A model generated the notes under the pieces. It made no database searches, had not been told where the DNA came from, and saw nothing but the letters and a program-made list of their open reading frames with translations. Both the position numbers and the translations under genes were made by a program. A stretch of 52,243 nt of DNA, filler included, from Basidioascus undulatus (taxonomy: Eukaryota): NCBI GenBank assembly GCA_000826855.1. It is 3 parts of 3 records of this genome, joined end to end, with 100 filler letters (N's around TTAATTAATTAA, not from the genome) between each part and the next. Parts side by side here need not be neighbours in the genome. Positions count along the whole stretch, not along the records: positions 17,445 to 34,788 come from JTLS01000536.1; 2 more parts are not named here. The stretch is one strand, 5' to 3'. Below, piece after piece: positions 10,997-49,423 of this stretch. Position 1 is the first letter of the stretch; every line of letters begins with the position of its first letter.

Positions 10997-11718
10997 AAGA
11001 AACGTAATTTACAGAGATTGAGAGCGTCGGGGCGTGCTGGTCGTTAAAGGTGCGGTCGTGAGCGTAAGTCGTGGGAAGAGCAAGACGAGGAGGAGCAGGC
11101 CGAGGGGGAAGATGGTCGAGAACGAGACGTCATGGAAGCTGGCAAAACCAAGCGCGCCGCCCGGGCACGTTCGCACAGCGTTCGGCCTGAAAAGTTCATC
11201 AACCTAACTGCAGGCTAGACCGACATGTACATTTCAAGTCAGATGGGCAGGGATTGAGTATTTAACTCAGACTGCGTGCATGCCCATGAAGACGAGGCCA
11301 ATACAAGCAGTGTGGACAGCACAATACAAACAACAGCCATGTCGCATGACGAAGCTCGACCACTGCGTTGATTAACAGTTGCACCGGCAGCACACCCAAG
11401 AAGGAAGCCTGCCACCTGCAGTTCGCAGCCCAGAGCGGAGACAGGGCCTGTGCACAGAAAGCCATGACGGATGCGCTATCAGAGCAGTGGGATGAGAAGC
11501 GGTAACCGCTGCACAGTCCGACATGGCACAATAATCCGGCGCCAGCCGCAAAAAGTCCCACGCACACGTACTTCATTCGACAGAGAAGCATGGCATGCGC
11601 AAGCGGACATACAAAGAATACACCAAATGGAAGCCGAGGCCGCAGCCGATCGGATAGAGCATGTGCGATGGGTGAGGGAGGGGTTGGCTGCTGCCCGATG
11701 GGAGGCTCCAAAAGGCGT

Positions 11719-12669
11719 TTAGACCTGAGGGAGGACGTGGGTGAGACGAGAGAACGCGTGGGCAGGGAAGCGAAGAAATGCGGACCTTGAAGCCACGGGA
11801 CTTCCTGCGACCACGCGCACGCTCGAACTTGCGGCCCTTCGAGATGACGTCTGGATTAAGGAAGAGGGTAAGGGGAAGTGCCAAATGGCGAGCAGGCGAT
11901 TGTGTAGACGCACAGGGCTTCTTGTTCTTGTGCGGGCCCATGCCGAAGTGGCGGACAGCCTCACGCGCGTTCTTCTTGCCGCGGAGGAGGACAGTGTTGG
12001 AGCCAGTCGGGGCACGGAGGGCGAGCTGGTCGAGGGTGATAGCCTCGCCGCCGGCAGCCTCGATGCGGGCCTTCGCGCTCTTGGTGAAGCGGAGGGCGGC
12101 GACCGAGAGCTTAGGGACAGTGAGAAGACGCTCGTCGTCGGTGACGGTGCCGACGGTGACGATCGTCTTAGCGTCCGCAGCAGGCGTGTGACGGGTCTCA
12201 TAGACGATCTTCGAGAGCGACACCGGGGGCCGGTTGATCTTGGACTGGAACAGCCGGCGGAGGATCACACGGTTGAAGGCGCTGTCCGTGCGGCGGGCGA
12301 GGAAGCGGTAGAGCTGCAGGGAAGACGGGACGTTGAGAGGGCTTGGGGAAGGAGGGGAGCAAAAGAGCGTGCCCACCTTCACGAGGAGGAGGAGGTACGG
12401 GTCCTCGCTCTTCGGCGCCGTGCGCTGGCCCTTGGAGACGTGGTGCTTCTTGATGTCGATACCCTGCAATCCCGCCAGAATCCAGCACCGTCAGTCTCCT
12501 GCTTCTCGCTCGGCCACCTGTCCTGCTCTCAGTCCTCCCCAACCCGCGTGCCCAACCTGCCCCTTCCCGCCCGACCAAGCCTTGCCGGCCGGCCTTCCCC
12601 CTTACTCCCTCCCTCACTCTCTTTGACCGCCTCCTCACCCGACCCCTAGCAGGAAAATAGTCTCACCAT
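11719..12669 (-). CDS. RPL18: 60S ribosomal protein L18 (eL18), 5 exons
   Basis: ATG-only first exon, then [73 protein letters not shown]. Confidence 0.98.
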
Positions 12670-13099
12670 CTTGACTGCACGGTGCACGGTATCACCAGCA
12701 GATCAGTACGGGGTGAAATGGGTATCGAGGGGACGGGACGGACCGAACAGCGACGCTCACAAACCAAGTCGGTCGGCCGGGCAGAATTGTGAGAGTGCGT
12801 TGAGCGCGCGAGAAGGAAAAACAACCGTAACGTCCCCCGTTCGGACTCCTCCATCGCACCTCCCTCCCGCCTCTCATCAGTTTCAGACCGAATAACGATT
12901 TGCTGCGACTAGTTTATTTGGATTTCTTTTAAATTATACAGTTAATCAAATATATTTATGATGCAATCGTATTCTGTAACGGATCATGTCTGACCCTGCT
13001 GGGGACGGTTTTACGCACGCTTCGCATTGACTGCACTGTTCCACTTGCTTCAACAGTCTGAGTCCAACAAAATAGGGGCTGCTGGTAGGTAATTACCCA

Positions 13100-27799: not shown

Positions 27800-30619
27800 A
27801 TGCATACTCCTCGCCGCCGCCTTTCACCTCCTCCCCCGCTCTACTCGCCGCACCGCCAGCCTGCCTCGTCACCCCCGCGCGAGGGCCGCGTCCGTCGCGC
27901 TACCGAAGCCGTCTTCGCGATCACGGACCTCCCCGCTACTCTTCCTCGCGCCGCCGCGCCCGTGCTGCCAAGGCCTATTACGCCTCCTCCCGCCTCGGCC
28001 GGTATGTTTCCTTCGGTGGCGACGCTGCTGGGACCAACAGGAGCTGATCATTCATGACAGGCCTACTCTCCCCTCCCGACTTCACCAGGCCCCTTCCACG
28101 CACCCGCTCTACCCGCGCGAAGACGATCCACTCGCTCGCCCCCCGCCCGACGACAGACCTGCTCGCATCCGCCCCGAGCGTCCCTCTCGCGCAGCCCCCG
28201 CACTTCCACACCCCCAAGGCCCGCAGGCAGCGCACCGAGACGTACCGCTCGCGGCTGACTAAGACGGGCGGTCTACTGGACTCCGTCAACGAGGAGGACG
28301 ACGACGGGAAGGCGGGCGCGGCGGAGTTCAAACCCCAGATGGTCGACGACGGCGTCTTCTGGTCGTCCCAAGCTCTCGCTCCGGCAGCGTCGATCTCACC
28401 TCCGCAGTGCGACAGCTGCAGCTACGAGGCGCGGCCGGGCGACGTCCTGACCGCGCTCGACCCTTGCGGGCACCTCGCGTGCAGGGCGTGCCTCTCGAGC
28501 AGCCTCGGTATCGTCGCCGCTGCCGCCGCCGTCCAAGCTTCGTCGTCTCCCATCCACTGCGGCCGCTGCCACCGCGCAGTCTCGAGCTTCCGCCTGTCCC
28601 CCTCCCTCTTCCCATCGGAGAGGGCGAAGACACTGTTCCCGCCTCTGTCCCCCGAGACCGAGCTGCCGGCAGCCGCGCCACCTACGCCCAGCGCACCGAG
28701 GGCGATGCGCGTCGCGCTTGCTGCAAGCCAAGCGATGGCGAAGGCGACGTCCTCGGGCGCACCCACCGCCTATGACCCGATCGCGTACGAGGCTGGCGGA
28801 TTGTCGCGCAAGCCGGCGCGCAGCGATGAGTCGCCGGCCGTCGGCGTCTCGTCTATTGGCTGGCCAGTGGTCAAGGTGTCGAACATCCCGTGGGCGAGTC
28901 TTCTCTTCCTCCACTCCCTAAGCAGTCTGTAACGATGCGGTCCCCTACAGGACATCACGCCCGCGCGTATCGAGAAGTGGCTGCCCGCCGGCTCCCTCCC
29001 GCCCGCGCCCCTCCACCCTCACTCCGTGCACATCATCATGGACAGGTACGCTGCGCCCTACTTACCCCCCTTGTTTTGAACGCTCATCGAGTGCCCTCGC
29101 AGGAACGACGGCAAGACCGCCCACCACATGTACATCGAGCTCGCGTCGCAGGAGAGCACGGAGGTCATCATCTCGACGATGAGAAACACGCTTCTCGGCA
29201 GCGAGAACCGCGCTCGCTACGTCAACGTTACGCTCGCGAGCCAGGACGAGCTTCTGAGCGCGGTACATGTCTTCTCTGTATCGACGTTCGCGCTTGCTGC
29301 TGACTCGTTTCTGTCTTCCGCAGCTCTTCCCGACCTGGCAAGGCAGCTTCGAGCTCGGGCGCCCCTCCTTCTCCAATCTCAACACCGCGGAGGCCAACGA
29401 AGTCGTGTTCAACGGCTTCATCAGCCCGAAGGAGGTCCAGACGCTCATCGACCTTTGCGAGCGCGTCGGAGCGCACGCCATCCAGAAGATGCCGCCCAAG
29501 GTGCGCCGCGCGTCTTCGTCTCTCCCTCCCTTGACGGCGACATCTGACATTTTTGACTTCTCAGATGCACTTTTGCAAGGCGAGGCAGAACCCCTTCAAC
29601 GACCTGATCAGCATTCTCGTCAAGCTGCCGTGGACCGCGCTCGTTCACGAGAAGCCGGGCACGGGACACAGGCATACGCTGTTCTGTGCGTTACGTCCGA
29701 TTTTGACTCACGGGAGCTACTCTGACTGGGATGGCGCGGGCGCATTCAGGCTCCTTCAAGGGTAACATCGAGTTCAGTGTGGGCAAGCAGGCCTGAGCTG
29801 ACGCTCGGCTCCGCAGCGGCCATCTCGATCCTCAAGAAGCATCTCGAGGCGCAGGAAGAAGGTCTCGACCAGCACGTGCTCGCGCGCATGGTGCGTCACA
29901 TGTCCATCTTCCTCCCGCAAATGCTTACCGCGCATGTTCAGGTCACCGCCGCCAGCCTCTCGCCGGGTCCGTTTTCGCCTGCGCAGAGAGCGCTACGCGT
30001 CGCGATCTGACGTCCTGCATCTCACAGCGTTCAGCGAGCACCAGAAGTTTATCCTCTTCAAGCTGAGCGGCCTGAAGCGCAAGCGTCTTCCCGAGTACGC
30101 GCGCCCGGTCCGGTCCAACAGGGTCCCGCAGAGCGAGAACGTCTCGCCGTCGTCGACGCTCTTCTCGTCGCTGACCAGCCCCACGCTGCCCGCGCCCCTT
30201 GCGCCTGCTCTTCCCATCCACGCGGATCCCGCATCGCGTATTCCTCGGATGCTTGGTGCGTCTGTCACTCGTGCTGCTAGTTTCGGGAGCTGACCTTTCT
30301 ACTCCGCCACGCAGTCCCGTTCTCCACCTCACCCGGCATGACCCTTCATCCTCTCGGCCCGTTCAAGGCCCAAGTCCAACTTCCCCCCCCCCCGCCGTAC
30401 GCGCTCAACCCAGACGCGCGGATCTTCAAGCCGCATATCCGGCCCACGCAGCTCCCGCTCAGCCCGGAGTCGCCAGACCACATGCGCGCTCTTCCAGGAG
30501 CGGGGTATGCGGATGGCCATCTCGCGCGCAGCGGCGTCGGCGTCGCGCTGAAGTACGGCGCCCCGGACGAGGTCGTGCAGTCGCTCGCGGGCAGGCTGCG
30601 CGGTGCGGCGCAGGGTTGA
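27800..30619 (+). CDS. RING-finger (C3HC4-type) plus RRM-like protein with C-terminal PAM2-like motif
   Basis: CDSC..DPCGHLACRAC..CGRC; WPVVKVSNIPW|DIT..VHIIMDR|NDGKTAHHMYIE..YVNVTLASQDELLSA|LFP; PFNDLISILVKLPW; YALNPDARIFKP in last exon. Confidence 0.82.
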
Positions 30620-31466
30620 GTCGTCGGCGGGCAAACCCAGGTTCGCTGCAGCTTGTCCTTCCTTTTCATTTCTTATTCACTGTAACGAGCATTTGTTGGC
30701 TGGACTAGCCCAGACTGTAACAACCAATTCGCGCATTCCCCGCATCGCATGTCGTTCTGTACTCCTACCCGCTGTACCATCGTAGCTCGCTTAACCATCG
30801 CATCTCCGCAACGACTGTCACCTTCTGTTGTTCAGTTGGCTGTACTGAACTTTCAGGCATGGCGGTCGAACCCCGGATGCGGCGGACGGCGGAAGGCGTC
30901 ACGACACAATTCCGGCATCTTGTGCTTGCTCGCGACTGAGCAGGCAACGCAGTGTGCAAGTTTCAACTACGAGGTGTCGACAGAGACAGACTGCCCAAGC
31001 TCCCCTCCCCCCTGTTGTGGTTTCAGGAGTTCAAGTCGTTTCTAGGCGAGCCCCGGGAACGTGAAGCCCACCCTGGTGGCAGACAAGAGGAAGACATGGG
31101 AGAGCAGCAAGGTCGACCTTCAATCAGAAACGGCAGACATTGCAAGCGGGCATTGTACGTCCAGCTGTTTAAAGTCTGACTCGATAATAGCATTCCGTGT
31201 ATGAATTGGCTTCGCTCAAGACAACATACACATCCACCAAGTGGCTCTCCGATCAAAGACACAGTACAGTATTGGGACTGTCTCCATCTTGTTCCTGCCT
31301 GCGTCACTCTCGAACTTCAAGCAATCGGAATGATTGTGGAAGCAAGATTGAGGTAAAATCATTGCAAATCGGCCCATTGTGCCTTTACCTTTCGCCCTAG
31401 ATTGGTCTAGGAGTCGGCGCCGGAAAAAGCCGAATGTGGAGATCACGCATCCGAAGTACCTTCGTG

Positions 31467-31539
31467 GGGCATTTGGTGTAGGGGCTATCACATCTCATTC
31501 GCATTGAGGGGGTCCCCGGTTCAATTCCGGGAATGTCCA
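31467..31539 (+). tRNA. tRNA-Ala(CGC), intronless
   Basis: Acceptor GGGCATT/AATGTCC with G3:U70 alanine determinant, anticodon arm TCTCA-TTCGCAT-TGAGG, T-loop GGTTCAATTCC. Confidence 0.93.
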
Positions 31540-31540
31540 G

Positions 31541-31546
31541 TTTTTT
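31541..31546 (+). terminator. Pol III oligo(T) terminator of tRNA-Ala
   Basis: TTTTTT two nt after the discriminator base. Confidence 0.8.
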
Positions 31547-32149
31547 CTTCATTTGCTCCCGTTAGACCGCAGTTGATCTGTATGGGTCAAGCTGTGCAAG
31601 GTTGCTTTTTTCGTCCTTTTTTATCGTTCGCAGGGCCCGCTGAGTCTGTGGGCTCGTGGCATTGCTTGGGGAACCTGCGCTGGCAGACCTTCGCTCTTGC
31701 ACTCTTCGAAACGCTCATTCTTATGAGTTACAACAGGAAAGGTACGGCAGGCAAGCCCGGCAAAGACCTTCTAGAGGGTAGCTGGATGAGTGCGACATGT
31801 CGACGGAACGAGACAGTGCGGGACAATCATCATGGTGTGTATCACGTCAGTGAAAGGCGGCACCAGCTGCACCCGTTTAGAGCTGTGAACGTGCACAACA
31901 GGTCTGTCAGAGTATCCCTTCCACAATTATTTGACTTGGACAGCCAACCGGTGTACTCTTGGCTCTGTTAGGGCGCTGAGGCGGAATCTGCTCATGCAAG
32001 CTTGCCAGAGCCGAGCAGGCAGCAAGCGGCCGTGCTGTTGTACGAAGTTGTTCATAACTCATGGCTGCGATACAATGGTACATTCTTTCATTTGAGGGTA
32101 CGATTTGGATACCCGTGTGCACTGCAATGACCTGGCTGATTGCCAGATC

Positions 32150-33341
32150 AGCTGCCGGACTGTCAAGCCGCAGTGCTGATGGATCAGCACCAGCTTTGCT
32201 TCTGGATTGATGGGAGTGAACGATGGCTGCATCTTTTTCTTCTCCTCCTTCTTCTTTACAAGTCCTTAAGACAACTTCCCACGTCAGCATCTAAATTCAC
32301 AATGGAAATGAGTAAAAGTGTTGGCACCTTCTCCTTCACATGCTTCTTCTTCTCATCATCCTGAGGAAAGTGCTCAGCAATGAGCCGGGCTTTCCGATAT
32401 AAGGAGTCATGGTAGTGACTCCTTCTTCTTTTCGGCTCGTATTAACTCGTATTGTGTCAGCAACAGGCCACACCCCAAGAAACACGAGGAGGACAAGAAG
32501 GAGAAGGCATAGTCTCCACTCCATTCAGAAATGAAGTGCGGTCTGTTGCTCACCAATTGCATGCACTCTAGCATGACGAAGATAAGAAGAAGGTGGACAA
32601 ACTGAAGCGTGAGAGAGGAACGATGAGAAGAAAAAGGACAAGAAGGATGAGGAGGATGAGAAGAAGGCACGGGTGCCCTCAGCGTTCCACTGAACACAGG
32701 ATCTGACCTTTCCCTGATCGAACTCATCCTTATCAGGTCGAGGAGAAGAAAAAGGAGGATGACAAGGAGATTAAGGTACAGTTGATGCTGCGTTGCATTC
32801 AACATCCAGTATGGGCTATTGCTGACCTCATGCGATCTTACAGGATGACAAAAAGGAGGACAGTGATGAGAAGAAGGTACTTCAATGTTTAACCGCAGTC
32901 ATTATGAGATCTGAGGCGGTCCACCCTTACAACGAGGACGAGGATAAGAAGAAGACCAAGCGGGAGGACAAGAAACAGGAAGAAAAGGAAAAGGAAGATG
33001 ACAAGGAGAAGGTGCACTTGGTGCTACATTCAACTTGGTCATCGTCCTGTTGACAAATAGAATCAGGGAATGCAGGCTGGATATGAAGTTGAAAATCGAA
33101 TGCACCTTCTTCTTCTTGTCGTCGACCTTCTTATCCACCTGAAATAATGTGAAGGTTGGTTATCAGCAGCGAGGGTCTAAGTAGCATGCCCTCTTCAAGT
33201 TGCTGTTCCAGTGGCGCTTGCCGAAATCACCCGCATCACGACGATTCAGCATTTTAGAGCCGGTCGCGGCGTCGAGCGGCAGGGCAGCTGCCATGGCGGA
33301 GGCGGAGAAGGCAACGAGGCGAGGATGGAGCTGGTGCGCAT
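32150..33341 (-). pseudogene. Secreted Lys/Asp/Glu-rich micro-exon repeat protein gene, disrupted by an internal inversion (about 32477-33037) and small indels
   Basis: Signal peptide MRTSSILA/LVAFSASAMAAALP (1-nt deletion near 33319), LNRR, GKR, LKR sites; K/D/E micro-exons with splice signals on the minus strand outside and the plus strand inside the inverted segment; 3' end approximate. Confidence 0.8.
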
Positions 33342-34788
33342 GTTGAGCTGAAGGGGTGGGGAGCGTGTGGAGGGGCAAAGGTCGAAGAGGCTTGTATTGT
33401 AAGTTTTTGGAGCTTGGGAGAAAGATGGCTAATGGAGCTTTCAACCCTGCGAACGCTGGCCTTTTTAACTGGGGAGGCGACAACGATGCGCAGAGCAGTG
33501 ACCACGGTCTGTGGCACCAGGCTGACCCGCTGCTTCTCCTAATTTTTGATGGCATTCGTGGCGACTGCTATTTGCGTCGGCTTGGAACACGTTGCCTGTG
33601 CACTATTGCTGTCTTTATGACTGTGTTGCTAAGTCAGTCACCGCTCACGCAGCCACGGGATCTGCTTGGTGGGAAACACACTGTGTAATGATGATGATAT
33701 GACTTGCCGCACATGTAGTGTGCACAATCTTGCGAACCAACCGCTGCCGTCATCTTTCGAGGGAAGGATAAGACAGCGACGCAGCGACTCACGTACACGT
33801 GGTATGTTATTACGGCGAGCAACAACGTGCCGCTGAGATTTCCAGGTTTATCGTTGAGTGTGCGAATATATCAATCCCACTGGCAAAAGACGCTTAAAAC
33901 CTTACTGACCAAGCTCAGAATACAAAAGAGCGGACCGGTGGTCAACATCAGCGCCGCGCTGTTCGAACCCAGCTCTTCCCTCGCTCTTGCATGCAAGATC
34001 TGCCCTGTTCATGTCGCTAGTTTACATACGCGCTGGAATATATAGATTTGGTTCCACCCTCAGAATTCCGGTCTAGCTCAACCTGCGACGCGGTACCGTC
34101 GAGGTAGAACCTGTGTGCACCTCGATTGCCGTACGAGTGGCAAATGCCGCAGACGTCGACGCCTCACAACGACCGTTGTCCCCCTCCAACGCTGTAATGC
34201 TGTAAAAAATGAACTAAAATGGGTGGGTTGGAACTGCCGAAGCCCTCAAAGTGCAGTGACAGGACAGACTAGCTGAGCATCCACTGGCATTACTGTATGG
34301 ACGTGTTGACGAAGGCGTTTCAAACGTTAATTTTTTTTCGCTATTGGTAGAATCGAAACTGCTAGAAGTCGGGAAAACAGAAAATGAATGAGCAGTCACT
34401 ATCGGGTCCTTGCCTGCAAACGCAGCCGCTTTACCGCCCTCCGGGTCGGTACTTGACAGGAGATGTGGGCGCTGGTCGGCCCACCGCTGAAAGTCCTCTG
34501 CATCCTAGCTGCGTCTGTCAGCATTCTTCTCGTGTGCCACCTTTGTGCGGTTGGAGAAACAAGAGATGCGAGGGACTGAATGATGAGGCTATCCCGCCAA
34601 CATTGACTCGACTCACCCAACCTCCCTCTCTCTCGAACCTGATCGACCTGCATCTGAAAGCGCCACGCAGCCTCATCATGTTCATGCATGGCAGCCAGCA
34701 GCTTTCGTAACCTTCCCCCCTTCTCCCACTTCCCAAAGTACTCCCCCCTCCTCAGTCCGAGTCGCTCGAGCTCCCATGACCCTCAATA

Positions 34789-34888
34789 NNNNNNNNNNNN
34801 NNNNNNNNNNNNNNNNNNNNNNNNNNNNNNNNTTAATTAATTAANNNNNNNNNNNNNNNNNNNNNNNNNNNNNNNNNNNNNNNNNNNN
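34789..34888. other. Artificial contig-joining spacer (N44 + TTAATTAATTAA + N44)
   Basis: Identical layout to 17345-17444. Confidence 0.97.
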
Positions 34889-34968
34889 GGCGAGATGGCC
34901 GAGCGGTCTAAGGCGCCAGACTAAGGATCTGGTCCGAAAGGGCGTGGGTTCGAATCCCACTCTCGTCA
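34889..34968 (+). tRNA. tRNA-Leu(AAG), intronless, starting at the first base of the contig
   Basis: Acceptor GGCGAGA/TCTCGTC, D-arm TGGCCGAGCGGTCTAAGGC, anticodon arm CCAGA-CTAAGGA-TCTGG, long variable arm, GGTTCGAATCC. Confidence 0.95.
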
Positions 34969-35418
34969 CTCCTTTTGCATACTTCTTGACTCGTCTTAGT
35001 CGTCCGGAAGGAGGCAACTTGCTTTTGGTCTCGCTCGCCCACAAGCGTGAGTCCTGAAACACCAGGTTTAAACCTGTTTGCAGACTCTGACAGAGCCGAT
35101 GCTACTCTCCAGCTCAGCCTGACTACTGCGCCTGCGCATATGTTCAGTACAAGGCTGTGTCCCCTTTTAGCCGAGGTATCCGCATTCTTTCTTACGACAC
35201 TCTGTTCGTTTTCCAGAGGTAGCGAGCAGTCCTCTGCTGGCGCGTAAGAAGGTACGCCTGCAGCCCACGTGCAAGGAAACAAACTCCTGTGCCTCATCGG
35301 CTTGACAAACTGGACGTTTGCACTCCCAGATCCAGAAGAACGAATTCAAGTCATGGGTGTTATACACATTGGAAGAATCGGGGTATCAGGTTGCGCGGTG
35401 CCCTGGAAGCACCAGCAT

Positions 35419-36342
35419 CTAAACCGGAGGAGCCTCGCAAGTGACGGCGGCGGTGTCCGCCTCGTCGTACGTGCAGTAGCCCTCCCAGGCCCACTGTAAT
35501 TGAAGAAAGAACAGTCCCAGGCCTCTTGCTGCCTCGTAAAATCTGAGAGAAAACTACTGACGTTGATGTAGCCGCCGTCGCCCTTGCGCGTGAACACGCC
35601 CTTCTTAAAGAGGATAATGTCGTAACTGGGTGAGACGGGTAAGCCAGGCTGAAAAGATTTCGAAAATTCTCTAAATTCTAGCTCACCCGAACGACAGGTT
35701 GTAGGTAGTGTCCCAGTAAAACTGTGGATAATAATTGGCATGCATCAGCATCGATCCAGGCATTTGCGGGGTCACTGTTTAGCACACCTCTTGGTGGTCC
35801 TGGAAGTTTCAGGGATCATCAGCGGGGAAATCGGTGGTGTAATTCACTTACGGTCTGGTAGTTTACACCCTCGTCTCCTTCGTACTGGACTCCCCATGGC
35901 GAGTACGTCACGAACGCGTTGAACTCGCGGTGCTCCTCGCGCATCTTCGATGCGAGCTGCTTCGCAAACTTCGCGCCTCTAAAGAGGAATCAAACAACAT
36001 CGCTAGTGATCGAGGATGAAACCTTAAACCGAAGACTCACCCTGTCAATGTCCTTGACGCCTTTAACGAGACCCTTGATGATTTCGCGATCGGGTCCGCA
36101 AAGCCAGGCGCGATGTGACTATAAGCAGTCGAACCAAGTTCAGTGTCATACTCATGTCGGAGGTGCGAGGAGAAAGAAGAACAAGAGAACCCGGCCTGGC
36201 GGACTTGGACACCGGCCGCCTCACGGCGGACGATCGGGGCCTGGGGGTCGCCGGTGACGAACTTGGCGGACTCGAGCGGGACGGCGCTCACGGTCGCGAC
36301 AGCGAGCGCGCCGAAGGCACCCAGGACGTTGCTCAAATTCAT
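35419..36342 (-). CDS. Small secreted protein with C-terminal GDGGYINWAW motif (multi-exon; possible compensating frameshifts near 36090-35970)
   Basis: Signal peptide MNLSNVLGAFGALAVATVSA-VPL, VRR site; exons join to KFAKQLASKMREEHREFNAFV..EGDEGVNYQT|DHQE|FYWDTTYNLSFG|YDIILFKKGVFTRKGDGGYIN|WAWEGYC..C..*. Confidence 0.75.
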
Positions 36343-38300: not shown

Positions 38301-40020
38301 GATGGGCTTTCAATCATGTAGTTATCTATCTGAGATACATCAAATTGGAAAGCTTTGTAGAGCGCGACGCACTGCGTGTGATGCTCAGGCTGATCATTTT
38401 CCAACAGTAGTGGTTGTCGTGATGCCTCTTTCGCATATACTCTGACTTGCGCATGCGCACCCATGCAATGGCCTAGCACAAAAACAGAAACTTCCAATAA
38501 AATTTTCCAATAGTAAGCCGGCCCTGATCGGTATTGTAGCGGAGCATGATCAACTTCGCAAATGTCGTGCGAACGCTCGCCTGAGGTATGTCGCTAGGTG
38601 ATAGAGCGAACATTCAATTTAGGGCGTCTGAAACTGGGCAAAGGTCCAAGCGATGCCCCGGTTAAAAGGCGTACTTCCTGGTTCGAATGCTCATCTCATC
38701 AGTGGCTAGTATGCATACAGGCTCGTTACAGTCCAGCACATGAGGTTTGTCTCCTTTGCGCCGACGGCTCTGCTTCTGTCTTGGCGGACCTCAATCCCCC
38801 GGACCCTGGTATCTGTAATGCGGACGTTGAGTACTGCATTCCCGCCCATGGCCACCGCTTCGCGTCGCATGGCTGCGAAAGCCCGCTGCAGTCCAACCTA
38901 TGGCTGAATCGACACACAGTCGACACGGTCGAGATGTCTATATCCCTCCTTATAGAAAACAGACTTTCAATATGGATCTCCTTGGAGTGACCAGCAGCGG
39001 CTAGCCCCAGCCTACGGATGATTCGACAGTTTGGCGAGAGCTCCCAGCCGCTGTGAAGCGCGACGGAGGCGGCGCCCACATCGCTAGGCGCGACTTGGTG
39101 TGACATGCTGCGATAAAGGGTGATTGCTATAGGGTGAGTACGGTTGGAGGTTGGAATGGTTGAAGAGGGCAAGATGTGTGTCGGCAGAGGTTGACGGCGG
39201 AAACAAAGCGGGAAAGTGAGACTTTGTCATCCTCGACCCTCCATTCCGCACCGTCGGACGGATTCTGGCCATGAAAGATCGCCCTTGTACATACCAGCTC
39301 TCTTATATTTCGGAGAGGCAGTCGGCATCGTGGCATCTCTGCGAGGGTGCAACCGTCGATGGGGATGCCAACGTTTCCGTCCCACGCTCGCAAGTGTATG
39401 TAACACCGCAGCCAGCCCTACCACCAGTGCTCATGCCAAAAGAAACACACACAACCCACAAGTCCTGATGCTGCAGATGCTCAATGAATTGCTCTCCCCA
39501 ATCTCGTCCCCTCCCTTCCGTCCTGGCCTTAACAACAACGAAGAAGAATGTGAACAGCCAGCGACTTAAGTGCGTGCGTGCGAACGTTAAGAAGCGAAAG
39601 AAAGAAAGAGATGAAAACTGAGAACGTAAACGAAATCGAAAATCGAACGAGAGCGTGCGGTATGTGTATGAAAAGAATAAAGGTCCGTGCTGAGCGGGAA
39701 AGACGACTCGCTAAAGAGAAGAGAAACGTGCGGGACGTCAAAACGGAAGAGCGAAGAGAGAAATGAGAAGGAGAGTAAAGACAGACTGTGAAAGGCGAAA
39801 GAAGTGTGAGGGTGGACTAAGAAGGCAGGAAGGAGCAAGAGCGAGAGAGAACAAGGGCAGGAGTCGTTGAGAAATGTGCTGCAGATCGAGAGGGGCAGGA
39901 TGAGGATGTGAGACGGAAAGGAGATGTCGAGAAAAACGGTAAGGGATGGTAGGATAGGCAAGATAAGGAGACGGGAAGGAAGCAAGAAGGAAAAGAGCCC
40001 AAAGTCAACACCCGAAATCG

Positions 40021-42398
40021 TTACCGCCATTCACCCTGCATCGTCCCAGCCACACAATCAGCATCTCGCGAAACGAAAAGAAGAGAAGGAAACGAAAGGC
40101 CAACTCACCTCCCAATCGTCGTCCCTCTCCCTGCCCCGTTCCCTCTGCTCCCTCTCAACACGTCTCCGCTCGACCGCGCTCCCCGCCGAGACACTGCGGC
40201 CCATCGGCTCAGCCTGGGCGGACCGCAGCTCGGGCTCCATGCTAGCCATGAGCGCATCGACTGAGTCGCCGGTCTTCATGCCCGCTTCTCCTTGGCCGGG
40301 GACCGCGGCGAGTCCGTATGGCGGAGGGGCGGGGCCGAGGCCGGGTGTGGAGGGTGGTGCGGGCGAGGATGCGGAGGGGGCGGGGGTGTTTGACCGCGAG
40401 GGCGGGGCGGGTCGTGGGTGCCCTGCTGCGGAGGGGGGTTGGAGGAGAGCGGAAGAGGAGGAAGAGACAGTGGTAGCGGATGCGCCGTTGCGACCGAAGC
40501 CCGCCGCCTGGGAGGACCGGTGGTGCGAGTGCGCCAGGTCGACATTTGGAGAGGGGCTGCGAAAGGCCCCGAGCCCCGCCTGGCCGGGCGGGGGTTGCGG
40601 GCTCGGCGCGCGCGAGTTCGGCGCGCTCTCGATGTCCCCCGGCGGGAGGCTCGTCGGGAGCGGCGAGTACCCCGCCGAGGGCTCGGCGGAGCGGCCGACG
40701 GCGAGCGAGAACGGCCAGGGCAGGGAGGACGCCGCTGAGCGGGGCGGCGCGGGCGTGGTGGTGGAGGGGGAGAAAGGGTAGTAGAGGATCGCGGGGAGGA
40801 GGCCTGCGGAAGGCTGCCGGCTGTGCGAGCGGGAGGGCGAGCCGGGGCGCGAGAGCGGGGCGGACCCGACGGGGAAGGGGAGAAGAGGAATCCCACGTGC
40901 CGGCGCGGGGTGGTGCACCGAGCCATCGTCGTCGTTCGTGGAGGGGTGGGGAGGAGGAGAGGAAGGGAAGAAGTACGCTGCTGCGCCCGGCGGGTAGATG
41001 GATGCGGGCGGGCTGACGACGCGCTTGGCGAACAGGAGACGAATGACACCGATGGCGAGGACGAAGCCGCCGATGACGAGCAGGCCACGACCCCAGCGCC
41101 CAAGGAACGTGATGAAGCCCGCGTCGTCGGCGTGCCAGCTCGAGCCGTAGTAGTGGTCGAAGAACGCCTCGGGCGCAGTGCCCGGCTTGGCGTTCTTGCC
41201 GTAGAGGCTCTTGGGCAGGACGCGCACGGCCTCGGGGTCGGGCCCTTGGTCGAGCGGAGGAGCCGGGTGCGAGCCCAGCCAGAGCCCGTAGATCGTGCTG
41301 CGGCGCAGAAAAGCCTAGGGTTCAGATAGGGGCAATGCTGAGAAGTCACGCGACACGGACCTGATGAACATCGGACCGGTAGAGAACATCACGGTGGGAT
41401 AGTTGGAGATGTAGCGGTGGTTGAACTGGTTGTCCCAAGCGCCGCTAATCTATGAGCACGAGATCTCCTGGCTTTTCACAGGACGTAACGGGAGACGCAC
41501 CGTCTGCAAGTTGTGGATAACCTCGACCATGAACTGGCCATGCCGCTCCGAGAACATCACGTCGTTGGAAACGCCGACAGGGATTGTCTTGGCGAGGATG
41601 ACCGGGTACTGCAGCAGCGGGTCGACGCGGCGTCGGCACCCGACGTCCAGATCCAGGTAGACGCCGCCGTAGTGGTGCAGAACGAAGTAGCGGATGGCAT
41701 CGGCGCGCTGTTGTGACATCGTCAGCATCTCCGAGATGAACGCGTGGAGGGCTGGGAGAGTGGGCTGGGGAGTAAACGAACCTGAATCGGGTACGGGTAG
41801 GACGTGTACGTCGGCAAGAACCACGGATAGTACGTAGAGATGAACTGCTGCGCGAGCGAGTCGGTCCACAGGATGTGCTCGCTGTGAGGTGATGGGACAG
41901 AGGAGGGTCAGCAAGGTACGTCTCAGCGTTGTAGCTGTCCGCCCGATCATTATTCCGCCCCAATTCTCACGCCCATACACCCGCTCGCTCTCAAGGACCG
42001 ACCAGCCCCCCCTGCGGCATCCACAAGCCCCGCGTAGAAGAGACAACAACTCACTAGTCACTGTGCATCTGCATGCACGCGTCCCTCACGGCCTTCCACC
42101 GCTCAGGCAGGACGTCGTCCTTCCAAGTCCAATGCAGAATGCGCGGGATGCGCTCGCCGAGGTCATCGCGGGGGTCGACTAGGTGCGCATAGCCGTCGTA
42201 CTCGCCCGAGTTGTTGTAGGGCGGGAAGGGCTGCTTCATCGGATCGGCGGGGAAGGCGGGCATGTCCAGCGGGTACGGCTGGAGGAGCGCCGAGGAGGGG
42301 ATCGCGTAATAGGACGTGACGGCCGTGAGGAATATGAGCGTCCCGAGGAGGACGAGCGTGAGCAGCGTCAGCGCTACAAAAAGCGGTCGCCGGGCCAT
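40021..42398 (-). CDS. SUR1: Mannosyl-inositol-phosphorylceramide synthase, glycosyltransferase family 32 (Sur1/Csh1-like)
   Basis: N-terminal TM, RIPRILHWTWK, HILWTD..REFI..YPWFL, QRADAIRYFVLHHYGGVYLDLD (DxD), PVGVSNDVM, YPTVMFSTGPMF, FFDHYYGSSWHADDA, TM, long Pro/Ser tail. Confidence 0.93.
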
Positions 42399-45426: not shown

Positions 45427-48400
45427 ATGTCCAACGATCCACCCACACCACAGCCAAAGTACCATCCACTATTCGGGCAGAAGCGGTCCGCGTCGGCATC
45501 ATCGTCGGCGAGCTCAGCAGCGCCGCCGGCCAACGCGCCCAAGCGGAAGAACAATACCAAGGCCGCTGTCGCGCGCGATCCAAAGCAGGGGAGAATCGTC
45601 TTTGGCCAGGCAGGGCTTGTCGCGGGGAGGACGGAGGCGGAGAAGGCTGTGGAGACACAGAAGGGGAAGAAGAAGGGGGAGAAGAAGGCCATGGGGGAGG
45701 AGGCTTCCAGGTCGGGAGGGAGTCATGCGAGGGAGGATGTGGAAGGTGAGTGATTTCGGTGGTTAATCCTGGATCGAGCTGTTCGTGGAGGTGCTTGGAC
45801 CTTTTGATTCCCCGTGAGAGCTGACTTGCGCTTCTGTTGCAGGATCGGGAGCTCTGCCAGCTCCAAGACCGTCAGCGCCGTTCGAGACGCCCGAGGCCGG
45901 TAAGCTACCTGTCAAGCGTTCTATTGCGAACCTGGCTGATCGCTTTCCACCCATCCTCTTTAAGCGCCCTCGTCTACACTTCATGCTCCCGCGAAGGCGG
46001 ACAGCACCGCGAGCAGCGCCGAGACCGACGTCGACCGGACTGAGGCAGAGGACACGGAGATGGAGGTGGACGACGCTGCATCAAGTGTGTTTCTTACATT
46101 TTGGAGAGGTTACCGCGGTTCATATGTAAACTCTGCCTTGACCACTTCAGACGCGGCTCTTCCTGCAGAACCCGCGCCCGCGCCCGCCGTGCACGAAGGT
46201 GCGTCTGCATTTCAGCTGGTCGCGAGGTGTGCGGTTGCGCTGAGCAAACCCCTTCATAGGCGTCTCACAACCTCCGCCGGCGGGGACTGACACGGGCAAT
46301 GAACCCACTCTGGACGACGGCGGTGTGTTTTGGGGTGCTTTCTCTGTCAGCCAGATTACCTTACCGACCTCCCACCCCCTCAGGGCGTCCGAAACGGAAG
46401 CGTCCTCCCCCTGGGTCGTTCACCATACCTGGTGCACACCTCCGAGCTCTGAGATGAACGAAGCACGATGGCTGAACCTCTCCTCGTTTCCGCGCACCAG
46501 CTCTCTCCCCGCTCAAGCCTGCTCGCTCGCCCTCGCCGCCGGCCAAGAAGCGCTCGCAGGCGCCGCAGGCGCTGACGTCAGATAAGGATGGCGACGACGT
46601 TCGGGTCGTCTCACCGAAAGGCAAGAAAAGCGGCCGGCCACCAAAGGGTGGGTTTCAGACTCGTGTTGTATCCTCTGCTAAAGCGACACGCTCTCATCTT
46701 CGTTGGCCGCACAGCACGCCCTCCTGTCGCGACTGCGGCTCCGAGCAGCGACGACGACGTCAAGTACATCTCCACTACCTCCCGCTCCGCCTCGCCCAAG
46801 CGTCCTCCTCCGCCCTCCAAGCCCCTTCATCCCATGTTCGCGCCCAAGGCACAATCGAAGAAGCCACGCCCTTCTCCCCGGCCCGAACCTACCCGTCTTT
46901 TCAACTTCTCCGCCGTTCCCCCCACCTCAGCTTCCTCCAGCAAGCGGGCCCCTGAGCCCATCGTCATCTCCGACGAGGACTCGCCGAAGAAGCCGCGCCC
47001 GCCGGCGCCCGCGCTGGCGCTGCATCCCATATTCGCGCCTCTCTCGAGACCGGCACGAGCGCTGCCGAGTGCGAAGGCGTGGACGACGGGGAAGTGGAGG
47101 GAAGCGAAGGAGGCGAGCTGGCCTTTGCGGGAGGACATGCACGTCCAGCCTCCGCCCGCGCTCAATTGGCCTGACGCCCCGCCCAGCCGTGTCTTCGGCT
47201 CGCGCGACCCTCGTGCGTTCGTTGGCGTCCCGGCCCCGCCCACCTCCATGCCGTTCGCCATCGACCTCCGCCCACCGTCGTCTGCTCGCCCTCACACGCC
47301 GAGCCCGTCATTCTCCTCCCCCTCCTTGCTCCGCTCTCATCCTGCCATCGCGCGTCTCCCGCTCCCCCCCTCCTCCGAGGCCGAGACCTACGCGGATCGG
47401 TTCCGCCCAACGCGAGCGGACGAGGTCCTCGGCAACGAGGAGCAGGCGCAGTACCTCAAGCAGTGGATGAGCGGCCTCGCGCTGGGCGGAGAAGGCTGGG
47501 CCGGCGTGCGCGACGTGCGGACCGAGCGCCGCACACGGAAACGCGGCCGACCACGCAAAGCTCGTGCGAACGACGACGACAAATGGATCGACGACGACGA
47601 CATCGAGCATTTCTCCGACGAGGCGTCGGACGCGGACGCTGGCGCCCCGGCCGAGGCGACCCTCGAGGACGATAGCGCGCGCAGGATCGAGTACACCTCA
47701 AACGCGATCCTCCTCGCCGGACCGTCCGGAACGGGCAAGACCGCGGCGCTATATGCGTGCGCGGCGGAGCTCGGGTGGGACGTCTTCGAGGTCAACCCCG
47801 GCGTGGGGAAGCGCTCGGGCAAGGAGCTCCTCTCGCTCGTCGGCGCCGTCGGGGGCAATCACGTCCTCGGGCCGGGGCGCGAGACACGCGAGGGCAGGAC
47901 GCGCAGCGTCGTTAGCCATGCTGAGGAGGAGGCCGCTTCGGGCGAGGGGACGAGGTTCAGGGAGAGCGTGATCTTGCTCGAGGAGTGCGACGTCCTGTTT
48001 GAGGAGGACAAGGGCTTTTGGAACGCAGTGGGCACGCTCGTCGCCGAGTCCAAGAGGCCGGTTGTCTTGACTTGCAACGGTGCGCTGCACTCTTCGACAC
48101 AGTTCCAGTCATTCTCGGTTCATGCGCTCACAACCGCTCCACCCTCTCCCTCCAACAGACCCCTCCGTCCTTCAACTCTCCTCCATCCCCCTCCAAACGA
48201 CCCTCACATTCCGCCCGCCGCCAACCGACCTCGCCGTCTCTTACCTTCACGCCATCGCACCGGACATCTCGCGCTCGCACCTCAAGCGCCTCTACCTCGC
48301 TCTGCACGAGCCCGACGCTCAAGAACGCCTCGCGCAGGACCGCGTGTACCCCGTGCGCGGCGTACCCGCCGAGGTCGGAGCTGCGGGGAGCGGGGGAGAT

Positions 48401-49423
48401 CTGCGCAGAGCGTTGATGGCGCTGCAGGTCGGTGGCGCAGCGGAGCCGGCAGTGAGCGAGGAGCTCGGCGCAGTGGCGTCGGGCGTGAGCGAGGAGCTCG
48501 AAACGGACGCATCGGCTGCGCTCGCGTCCTTGAAGGCTAGGGCGGCGTACTGGGACGCGCTATCCTTTGCGGATGCATGCGTTTACCCGGGTCTAGCGCG
48601 CACGGTCGAGGTGCGTGTTCCACCGGCACAAAGCCGAGGAGCGTATCGGCTGACGCGCGCTTCGATAGGCACTCGAGCCAGAGCATTCAGCGCCCTCTTC
48701 AAACGACATTGTCGGCTACGCCCATCTCGTCAAACCCTATCCTGGCCCGCCCGCGGCCGGCCTGGCGCAGTTCGGGCGCGAACAGGAGATGGGGGACGAA
48801 ATTGTTTGCCGCGCGAGGGAGCGGTTGGGTGGAAAGCATGTGGGCAGGGAGGTTCGGGTGTTGGAACTCGCTGCAGACCGGTGCGTTGCTGCTTGCATTC
48901 GCTCGTTGTTCGCAAGCTGGAAGCTGACAAGTTCATAGCACGAGCAGCGCACAATACATCGAGAACAGCCTCTCTTTCTTCGCCAACCTCCTGCCACTCT
49001 CGGCGCCCCTACTCCCGCACCCTTCGCTCTTCACCGACTACGCTCCCTGGATCAGGCACATGGTGCTCGTCGATGACCTCTACGCCGTCGCCGCTACCGC
49101 CGTCGCCGCGGCGGGCGGGCGGGCGACCCGCACCTCAGCGGCGGCGAGGATGGGGATATACTATCGCTATATCGATGAGGATGAGCGCGTGCTGGAAGGG
49201 ATGAGGAAGAGCGGGTGGGAGGGTGTTCAGGTGCGCACGGGTTTCGCCTTCGGCACTGTCGCGCTGCGATGCGACACTGACTGGCGAGCGGGGACAGTGC
49301 GAGTTGAGGATGCAGGCGGCAGGAAAGGGCGCTGAGAAGGTGGGGGAGAGGGCAGTGGAAGGCCAGAGCGTGATGGAAGAGAATGGCGCTTCAGCACCGG
49401 TGGAAGAGCAGCGCAGCGTGTGA
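45427..49423 (+). CDS. ELG1: Elg1/ATAD5 alternative RFC large subunit (PCNA unloader), AAA+
   Basis: YADRFRPTRADEVLGN, Walker A GPSGTGKT, AAELGWDVFEVNPG..RSGK, ILLEECDVLFEEDKGFW, SKRPVVLTCN, GDLRRAL; long disordered N-terminus; last exon inferred. Confidence 0.9.

Follow-up and report, generated by a model that had tools for sequence, protein, structure and literature searches.

Does a cluster of very short reading frames made almost only of Lys, Asp and Glu (K/D/E) in the genome of the fungus Basidioascus undulatus represent a gene, and if so, of what kind and in what state? The cluster lies in a 52,243-nucleotide stretch of DNA, analysed here as a whole and referred to as the window. The initial annotation had read it as the precursor of a secreted, highly charged protein, assembled from an array of micro-exons and no longer functional in this copy. 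We compared this reading with splice signals, related copies in the same genome, strand composition and known systems of similar design.

Results

An array of short K/D/E exons

When all six frames of the window were searched for K/D/E runs, with 9 or more such residues in 11, 8 of the 10 runs fell between 32325 and 33138, within 814 nt. A scan for stop-free units of the form AG, 3n nucleotides, GT or GC, with at least 75% K/D/E, returned seven distinct exons at this locus and four isolated places elsewhere in the window. Two of the seven exons are read from the minus strand: E2 (33106-33138, VDKKVDDKKKK, 33 nt, phase 0-0, donor GTGCAT) and M3 (32328-32360, DDEKKKHVKEK, 33 nt, CAG acceptor, donor GTGCCA). 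The other five are read from the plus strand: P1 (32480-32506, KHEEDKKEK, 27 nt), P2 (32572-32666, HDEDKKKVDKLKR / ERNDEKKKDKKDEEDEKK, 95 nt), P3 (32737-32775, VEEKKKEDDKEIK, 39 nt, donor GTACAG), P4 (32844-32876, DDKKEDSDEKK, 33 nt, donor GTACTT) and P5 (32937-33011, DEDKKKTKREDKKQEEKEKEDDKEK, 75 nt, 25 residues, donor GTGCAC). The K/D/E stretches listed in the initial annotation are thus all present where it had placed them, except that the "DDD" piece described before KKHEEDKKEK was not found and only KHEEDKKEK is seen there.

All seven exons are preceded by AG, end in AAG and are followed by GT or GC, and six of them have lengths that are multiples of 3, in agreement with the at least seven AAG-ending exons at phase-0 junctions that had been proposed. 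The sole exception is P2, which carries a 1-nt frameshift near 32611-32613. The spacers are 51-70 nt long, and a branch-site-like CTRAY motif is located 20-34 nt before the acceptor in five of eight spacers, against 1.33 expected from shuffled sequences. The 111 codons of the array comprise 46 Lys, 24 Asp, 24 Glu and no Gly codons, so that K/D/E make up 85% of the residues, with AAG strongly preferred over AAA (40 vs 6) and GAG over GAA (19 vs 5). This bias and the GC3 of 0.75 agree with the GC-rich codon use of the gene for the 60S ribosomal protein eL18 in the same window. The array was missed by ORF finding, as had been anticipated. Together with the first exon described below, these features support a gene-like arrangement in which a signal-peptide exon precedes an array of short symmetric exons.

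When the seven exon-plus-intron units were aligned, their lengths aligned and the exon ends, donors and branch regions fell in register. Over 50 nt, the 3' junctions of P3 and P5 agree to 80% (E 3.7e-6), and since this likeness reaches into the intron, it backs the earlier suggestion that the array grew by duplication of exon-plus-intron units, which is probable from the sequences at hand. This junction pair is the only significant DNA similarity among the K/D/E segments, the eight segments being alike in composition; pairwise intron alignments gave z above 2.5 in only 1 of 28 pairs, and TRF detected short internal repeats only.

The signal-peptide exon and a candidate last exon

Exon 1 (33190-33341, minus strand) contains the start codon, a putative signal peptide and a pro-region with the dibasic sites RR, KR and KR. 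At 152 nt it is one base short of 51 codons. The frame that opens at the ATG at 33341 starts with MRTSSILA and meets a stop after 31 codons; the signal peptide goes on into LVAFSASAMAAALP...LNRR..GKR..LKR only if the frame is shifted by 1 nt near 33317/33318. Read by eye through this break, which lies between 33317 and 33318, the N-terminus shows a basic n-region and a hydrophobic core of ~18 residues as well as a small-residue site (ASA/AMA). The proposed signal peptide with its LNRR, GKR and LKR sites is therefore present from this ATG but is continuous only across the frame change. Exon 1 is followed by a 51-nt intron (33139-33189) with a GC donor (GCATGC) and CTGAT 28 nt before its CAG acceptor.

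At the other end of the gene, the nearest acceptor after M3 (32266) leads to DL and then a stop. Another acceptor, AAG, lies 12 nt beyond it and would open a 64-codon exon in phase 0 on the minus strand (32059-32253, KKEEKKKMQPSF...IVSQP followed by a stop), which is an uncertain candidate for the last exon; its GC3 is higher, and it includes a piece kept in one of the related copies below. It appears that the array may be followed by a short non-repetitive C-terminal tail.

Related copies in the same genome

The region 31600-33700 was compared with the contigs of two sequencing runs at a likeness of at least 80%, a comparison that covered the matching parts of the paralogs. In each run, three further contigs matched the locus, and each of them shared the signal-peptide exon and at least one other module. 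Record 3/8 matched 33227-33341 (16 differences, 1 gap) and 33109-33159, a segment that includes most of E2, with 81 letters between the two matches against 67 at the locus. Record 2/7 matched 33294-33371 and, on the same strand as this signal-peptide match, 32132-32180 in the candidate last exon, with 911 letters between them against 1113 in the window. Record 5/10 matched 33187-33533 (49 differences, 12 gaps), 33631-33699 and exon E2. The 5' flank upstream of the start codon (33342-33699, minus strand) is thus common to family copies, the match of record 2/7 reaching into it up to 33371. A third run, X3, gave very short low-complexity matches only and was left out.

All three paralogs have one extra base at 33317/33318, exactly at the frame break of the window copy. 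In each of the three, by a manual reading of the alignment, the added base makes up a full codon, for an aliphatic residue that lies in the hydrophobic signal-peptide core. Third codon positions account for six of the nine differences listed in the aligned exon 1, a weak point given that 15 more differences exist. Taken together, the alignments indicate that the first exon codes for a signal peptide whose frame is broken in the window and open in the three paralogs. As the three paralogs share modules with the locus, they also indicate that the family is real and has at least four copies in this genome, including the apparent pseudogene in the window.

The summed contig depth over 32594-32664 was ~6 times the baseline in both runs (112.5 vs 19 in X1; 297.6 vs 55.6 in the other run). 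This peak over P2 points to several other places in the genome with K/D/E-coding sequence at least 80% alike to P2, which could be paralog arrays or unrelated charged tails. The contig across the locus in run X2 stops in or beside the tRNA-Ala gene, one of two tRNA genes that flank the locus, tRNA-Ala(CGC) at 31467-31539 and tRNA-Leu(AAG) at 34889-34969, both on the plus strand.

Searches for homologues elsewhere

Protein searches were carried out with the N- and C-terminal pieces. For the N-terminal 44 residues, 64 word-sharing candidates were found, none with E <= 1 among longer proteins, and a comparison with 1.84 billion representatives gave no match with E <= 0.001. For the candidate C-terminal 65 residues there were three candidates, none with E <= 1, and no usable match in the ESM Atlas. 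Among seven readings of the locus, six had no Pfam family, and a 75-residue read-through had sub-threshold matches only (best E 0.029, 14.2 bits against a cut-off of 27). Rfam over 30500-35500 found nothing beyond the two tRNAs. A metagenome locus (L001) matched by a 52-residue reading of exon 1 was rejected: it is a bacterial contig with an 801-residue repeat protein, and since the match runs out of the frame of that gene, we consider it a chance match and not a relative. By the sequence searches with the N- and C-terminal pieces, no homologue was found outside the genome of Basidioascus undulatus.

Elsewhere in the window, Pfam families were found in 3 of 50 long frames. An exon at 41453-42085 (minus strand) contains the DXD sugar-binding region of a glycosyltransferase (PF04488, E 3e-12), and a 654-codon ORF at 46576-48537 (plus strand) has an AAA+ domain, its homologues carrying Rad17/RFC-type Pfam families. 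This ORF had 85 matches with E <= 1e-20, the named ones being from Basidiomycota (Exobasidium, Wallemia, Naematelia, Calocera, Ustilago and Malassezia). Since their local identity was only 28-53%, it appears that the database contains no close annotated relative of this lineage, which limits the reach of all the homology searches described here. The window is eukaryotic and, most probably, of basidiomycete origin. The segments 28001-31000, 40001-41000 and 47001-48000 have 61-71% G+C and adjoin a region of 48-52% G+C (31-35 kb) that holds the locus.

Five exons lie in reverse orientation

What the initial annotation had not described is that the orientation of five exons is opposite to that of the remaining gene. 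Exon 1 (33341-33190), E2 (33138-33106), M3 (32360-32328) and the candidate last exon are on the minus strand, and P1-P5 (32480-33011) are on the plus strand. The purine profile agrees: the sequence is pyrimidine-rich at 32220-32440 and 33100-33120 and shows purine-rich pulses at 32460-33010, which places one strand switch within ~32440-32460 and the other within 33011-33105. This distribution of strands points to the inversion of a block of ~0.6 kb inside the gene.

By the purine profile and by reading, the right junction of the block (33012-33105) consists of two intron 5' parts that face each other, GTGCAC... on the plus strand and GTGCAT... on the minus strand, both with the TTCAACTT motif. 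The two similar intron starts (GTGCA..TTCAACTT) noticed earlier do exist, but on opposite strands and facing each other. The left junction (32361-32479) holds two intron 3' parts directed outwards, one to P1 and the other to M3. Two 5' halves at the right and two 3' halves at the left are what is expected if a two-break inversion had cut the gene in two introns. The N- and C-terminal anchors are 1113 nt apart at the locus, a spacing of the same order as the 911 nt in record 2/7, which argues for an inversion in place. The left junction is less tidy: there are two small repeats, one inverted (9 bp, 32401-32409 / 32416-32424) and one direct (8 bp, 32436-32443 / 32446-32453), as well as an orphan K/E fragment on the minus strand (32419-32436), and both junctions together are ~80 nt longer than two family-type introns. 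The extra length, the orphan fragment and the palindrome suggest that a simple two-break inversion may be too simple. We infer that the ancestral order was E1-E2-P1-P2-P3-P4-P5-M3-last and that the five-exon block P1-P5 (~32440-33050) would have been inverted in place, in which case the array could no longer be spliced into one message.

Lesions and the state of the copy

The frames of exon 1 and of exon P2 are both broken, P2 being readable only with a 1-nt frame change inside the exon. The donors of exon 1 and P1 (GCATAG) are GC, and that of P2 is either GC at 32667 or GTGCCC at 32673, which makes two or three GC donors. The acceptors of P1 (AAG) and P5 (GAG) are weak. G at +5 is missing from all five GT donors of the array but present in all four donors of the eL18 gene in the window. 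That gene (11576-12690, minus strand) has four introns with donors GTGAGA, GTGGGC, GTGCGT and GTCCGC, intron 1 (~215 nt) following directly after the ATG. In a de novo intron census of the window, G at +5 was present in 185 of 643 candidates, a share that is not discriminating. The E2 donor of record 3/8, taken from a loose contig end, is of the GTGCA type as well, so that the odd donors look like a trait of the family and not like decay of one copy.

The whole locus was found unchanged in one contig in each of the two runs, and the frameshifts and the inversion are therefore present in the assemblies of both, although both runs may derive from the same DNA and are not independent. No signature of ascomycete-type RIP was seen at the locus (TpA/ApT 0.46, against 0.64 in the window). 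The CpG observed/expected ratio is 0.66 at the locus against 1.04 in the window, which may reflect either decay or composition only.

The extra base that all three paralogs have at 33317/33318 marks the copy in the window as a pseudogene, and the initial view that this copy is dead agrees with the frameshifts in the signal peptide and P2, the inversion and this base. The damage would comprise the loss of one base in the signal peptide and one in P2, with two or three donors being GC. In our judgement the locus is probably a non-processed pseudogene from a gene family that is multi-copy and specific to its lineage; the pseudogene is inverted in part, frameshifted twice and weakened in its splice sites.

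Discussion

Other explanations of the locus

Among the other explanations, the one that deserves most weight, although we regard it as unlikely, is that the block P1-P5 came from elsewhere in the family: a copied part of another member would have been inserted, in reverse, into the intron between E2 and M3 of a short gene of two or three exons. Such an event would account for the extra material and small repeats at the left junction, would leave E2 and M3 to be joined by a phase-0 to phase-0 splice across 745 nt, and would fit the several other contigs that match the K/D/E exons (112.5 vs 19 over 32594-32664 in X1). However, the anchor distance without the block would be ~500 nt, against 911 nt in record 2/7, both junctions are halves of family-type introns as a two-break inversion predicts, and no flanking target duplication was seen. 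It is far less probable still that the plus-strand array P1-P5 is a live gene and the minus-strand pieces are remnants; this is the least credible of the explanations considered. Five consecutive exons do lie on one strand, and the continuation after P5 stays open for 26 codons, but this plus-strand tail is a mere antisense of exon E2. Upstream of P1 there is no in-frame start codon or signal exon, P2 is frameshifted, P1 and perhaps P2 have a GC donor, and the acceptors of P1 (AAG) and P5 (GAG) are weak.

That there is no gene at all, the locus being purine-rich low-complexity DNA or a decayed minisatellite that reads as K/D/E by chance, seems very improbable to us. The short internal repeats that are all TRF finds, the atypical donor hexamers and the lack of a Pfam family and of homologues of the N- and C-terminal pieces would be in line with it, but a signal-peptide exon kept in three other copies, each with the frame-keeping extra base, speaks against it, as do 3n exon lengths, AG/GY borders at all seven units, enriched branch-like motifs and a codon choice biased to AAG and GAG. 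We give equally little credence to a family that is not secreted, in which the K/D/E part would be a KKE/D-type tail and the N-terminus would have been misread. Tails of this type are found in nuclear or nucleolar proteins, and low-complexity sequence rich in K/D/E, with runs of lysine, is frequent among nuclear proteins. Against this stand the N-terminus itself, which when read by eye through the frame break has the n-region, core and small-residue site of a signal peptide, and the open signal-peptide frame of the paralogs. We thus retain the partly inverted pseudogene of a secreted family as the preferred reading.

The predicted product of intact copies

In an intact member of the family, a signal-peptide exon and a short pro-region with three dibasic sites would be followed by exons of 27-75 nt in phase 0-0 with introns of 51-70 nt between them, and these exons would encode a nearly pure, charge-balanced K/D/E polyampholyte. 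The product would enter the secretory pathway, and the pro-region would perhaps be trimmed at RR/KR. Cleavage of the array itself into peptides by a Kex2-type protease, as the initial annotation had envisaged, is not borne out: KR occurs in only two of the eight K/D/E segments (P2a and P5), inside the segments and at none of the unit borders.

The charges of the array are balanced (49 K+R vs 48 D+E among 111 residues) and blocky. Opposite charges are depleted at i+1 (33 vs 41.6 expected), enriched at i+3 (44 vs 35.3 expected, a value reached in 2.3% of 5000 shuffles) and not enriched at i+4 (32 vs 32.1 expected). In a single-sequence AF2 model of the plus-strand read-through from P4 through the intron to P5, residues 37-72 form a helix, with P5 as one helix at pLDDT 85-92; this is weak evidence, since such sequences are readily modelled as helices and the model includes intron-coded residues. 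From the balanced, blocky charges and this helix, we favour a helix-prone or disordered charged spacer as the body of the product. The K/D/E part would be a strongly hydrated, extended segment, rod-like and prone to form a helix or else disordered, and its length would depend on the number of exon units and could shift by unequal recombination between exon-intron units of ~100 nt.

Comparison with known systems

Gene families that combine a signal peptide with arrays of symmetric micro-exons are known from parasitic flatworms. The micro-exon genes (MEGs) of schistosomes are described as multi-copy genes with a signal-peptide exon first and a coding region made mostly of short 3n exons (6-81 bp), which are missed by automatic annotation; their introns are 100 to ~5000 bp long, their exons are mostly 15 bp, and their products are rich in the apolar residues Pro, Phe and Leu (PMC10526429). 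Like MEGs, the locus has a signal-peptide exon first, short 3n exons and a multi-copy family, and it is missed by annotation. Unlike MEGs, it has introns of 51-70 nt, exons of 27-75 nt and 85% K/D/E, and its host is a fungus and not a flatworm. Three protein searches with the N- and C-terminal pieces gave no match that would relate it to flatworm MEG proteins.

Among fungal secreted proteins, the KEX2-processed repeat proteins (KEPs), for example Ustilago Rep1, have a signal peptide and repeated peptide cores split by KR/RR, and Basidiomycota are included in a survey of them (PMC6339444). The locus shares the signal peptide, internal repetition and dibasic sites. It differs in the defining feature, as there is no KR or RR between its repeats, the three dibasic sites lie in the pro-region, and the repeats are compositional and not copies of one peptide.

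Single alpha-helices (SAHs) are rigid connectors rich in R, E and K (PMC5812594, PMC5347031). As in SAHs of the ER-K type, oppositely charged residues of the array alternate in short blocks, and P5 is predicted as one long helix. Unlike in SAHs, Asp makes up half of the acidic residues, Arg is nearly absent, and only i/i+3 pairs, not i/i+4 pairs, are enriched. Known SAHs are intracellular. The array is thus a partial fit to a charged single alpha-helix as far as the model goes.

Hydrophilins and LEA-like proteins resemble the array in their extreme hydrophilicity and low complexity. Hydrophilins are usually defined by more than 6% Gly, and they are not known to be secreted via a signal peptide. 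With no Gly among its 111 residues, the array does not match them, and the hydrophilin-like or ion-binding role suggested in the initial annotation is not supported.

Implications

Microexons have been called "barely studied in fungi" (PMC12230235), and in the literature searched we found no description of a fungal gene family that combines a signal peptide with a micro-exon array. The design of the family is unusual for a fungus, and it is plausible, as a lead, that the family is a variant of the micro-exon gene design in a fungus. More tentatively, and with less than even confidence, we propose that it is a fungal counterpart of the flatworm genes: multi-copy secreted proteins assembled from symmetric micro-exons of ~9-25 K/D/E-balanced residues each, in which gain, loss, inversion and skipping of exons may adjust how long a charged extracellular rod or polyampholyte becomes, the copy in the window being a casualty of that recombination. 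Regardless, the locus in the window is only a relic, of value because it points to the three other copies. If intact copies are expressed, the same micro-exon design would have arisen independently in a fungus whose introns are short, and the family would add to the secreted proteins a class overlooked by ORF-based and most gene-model pipelines. It would then also offer a simple system for exon-unit duplication and inversion.
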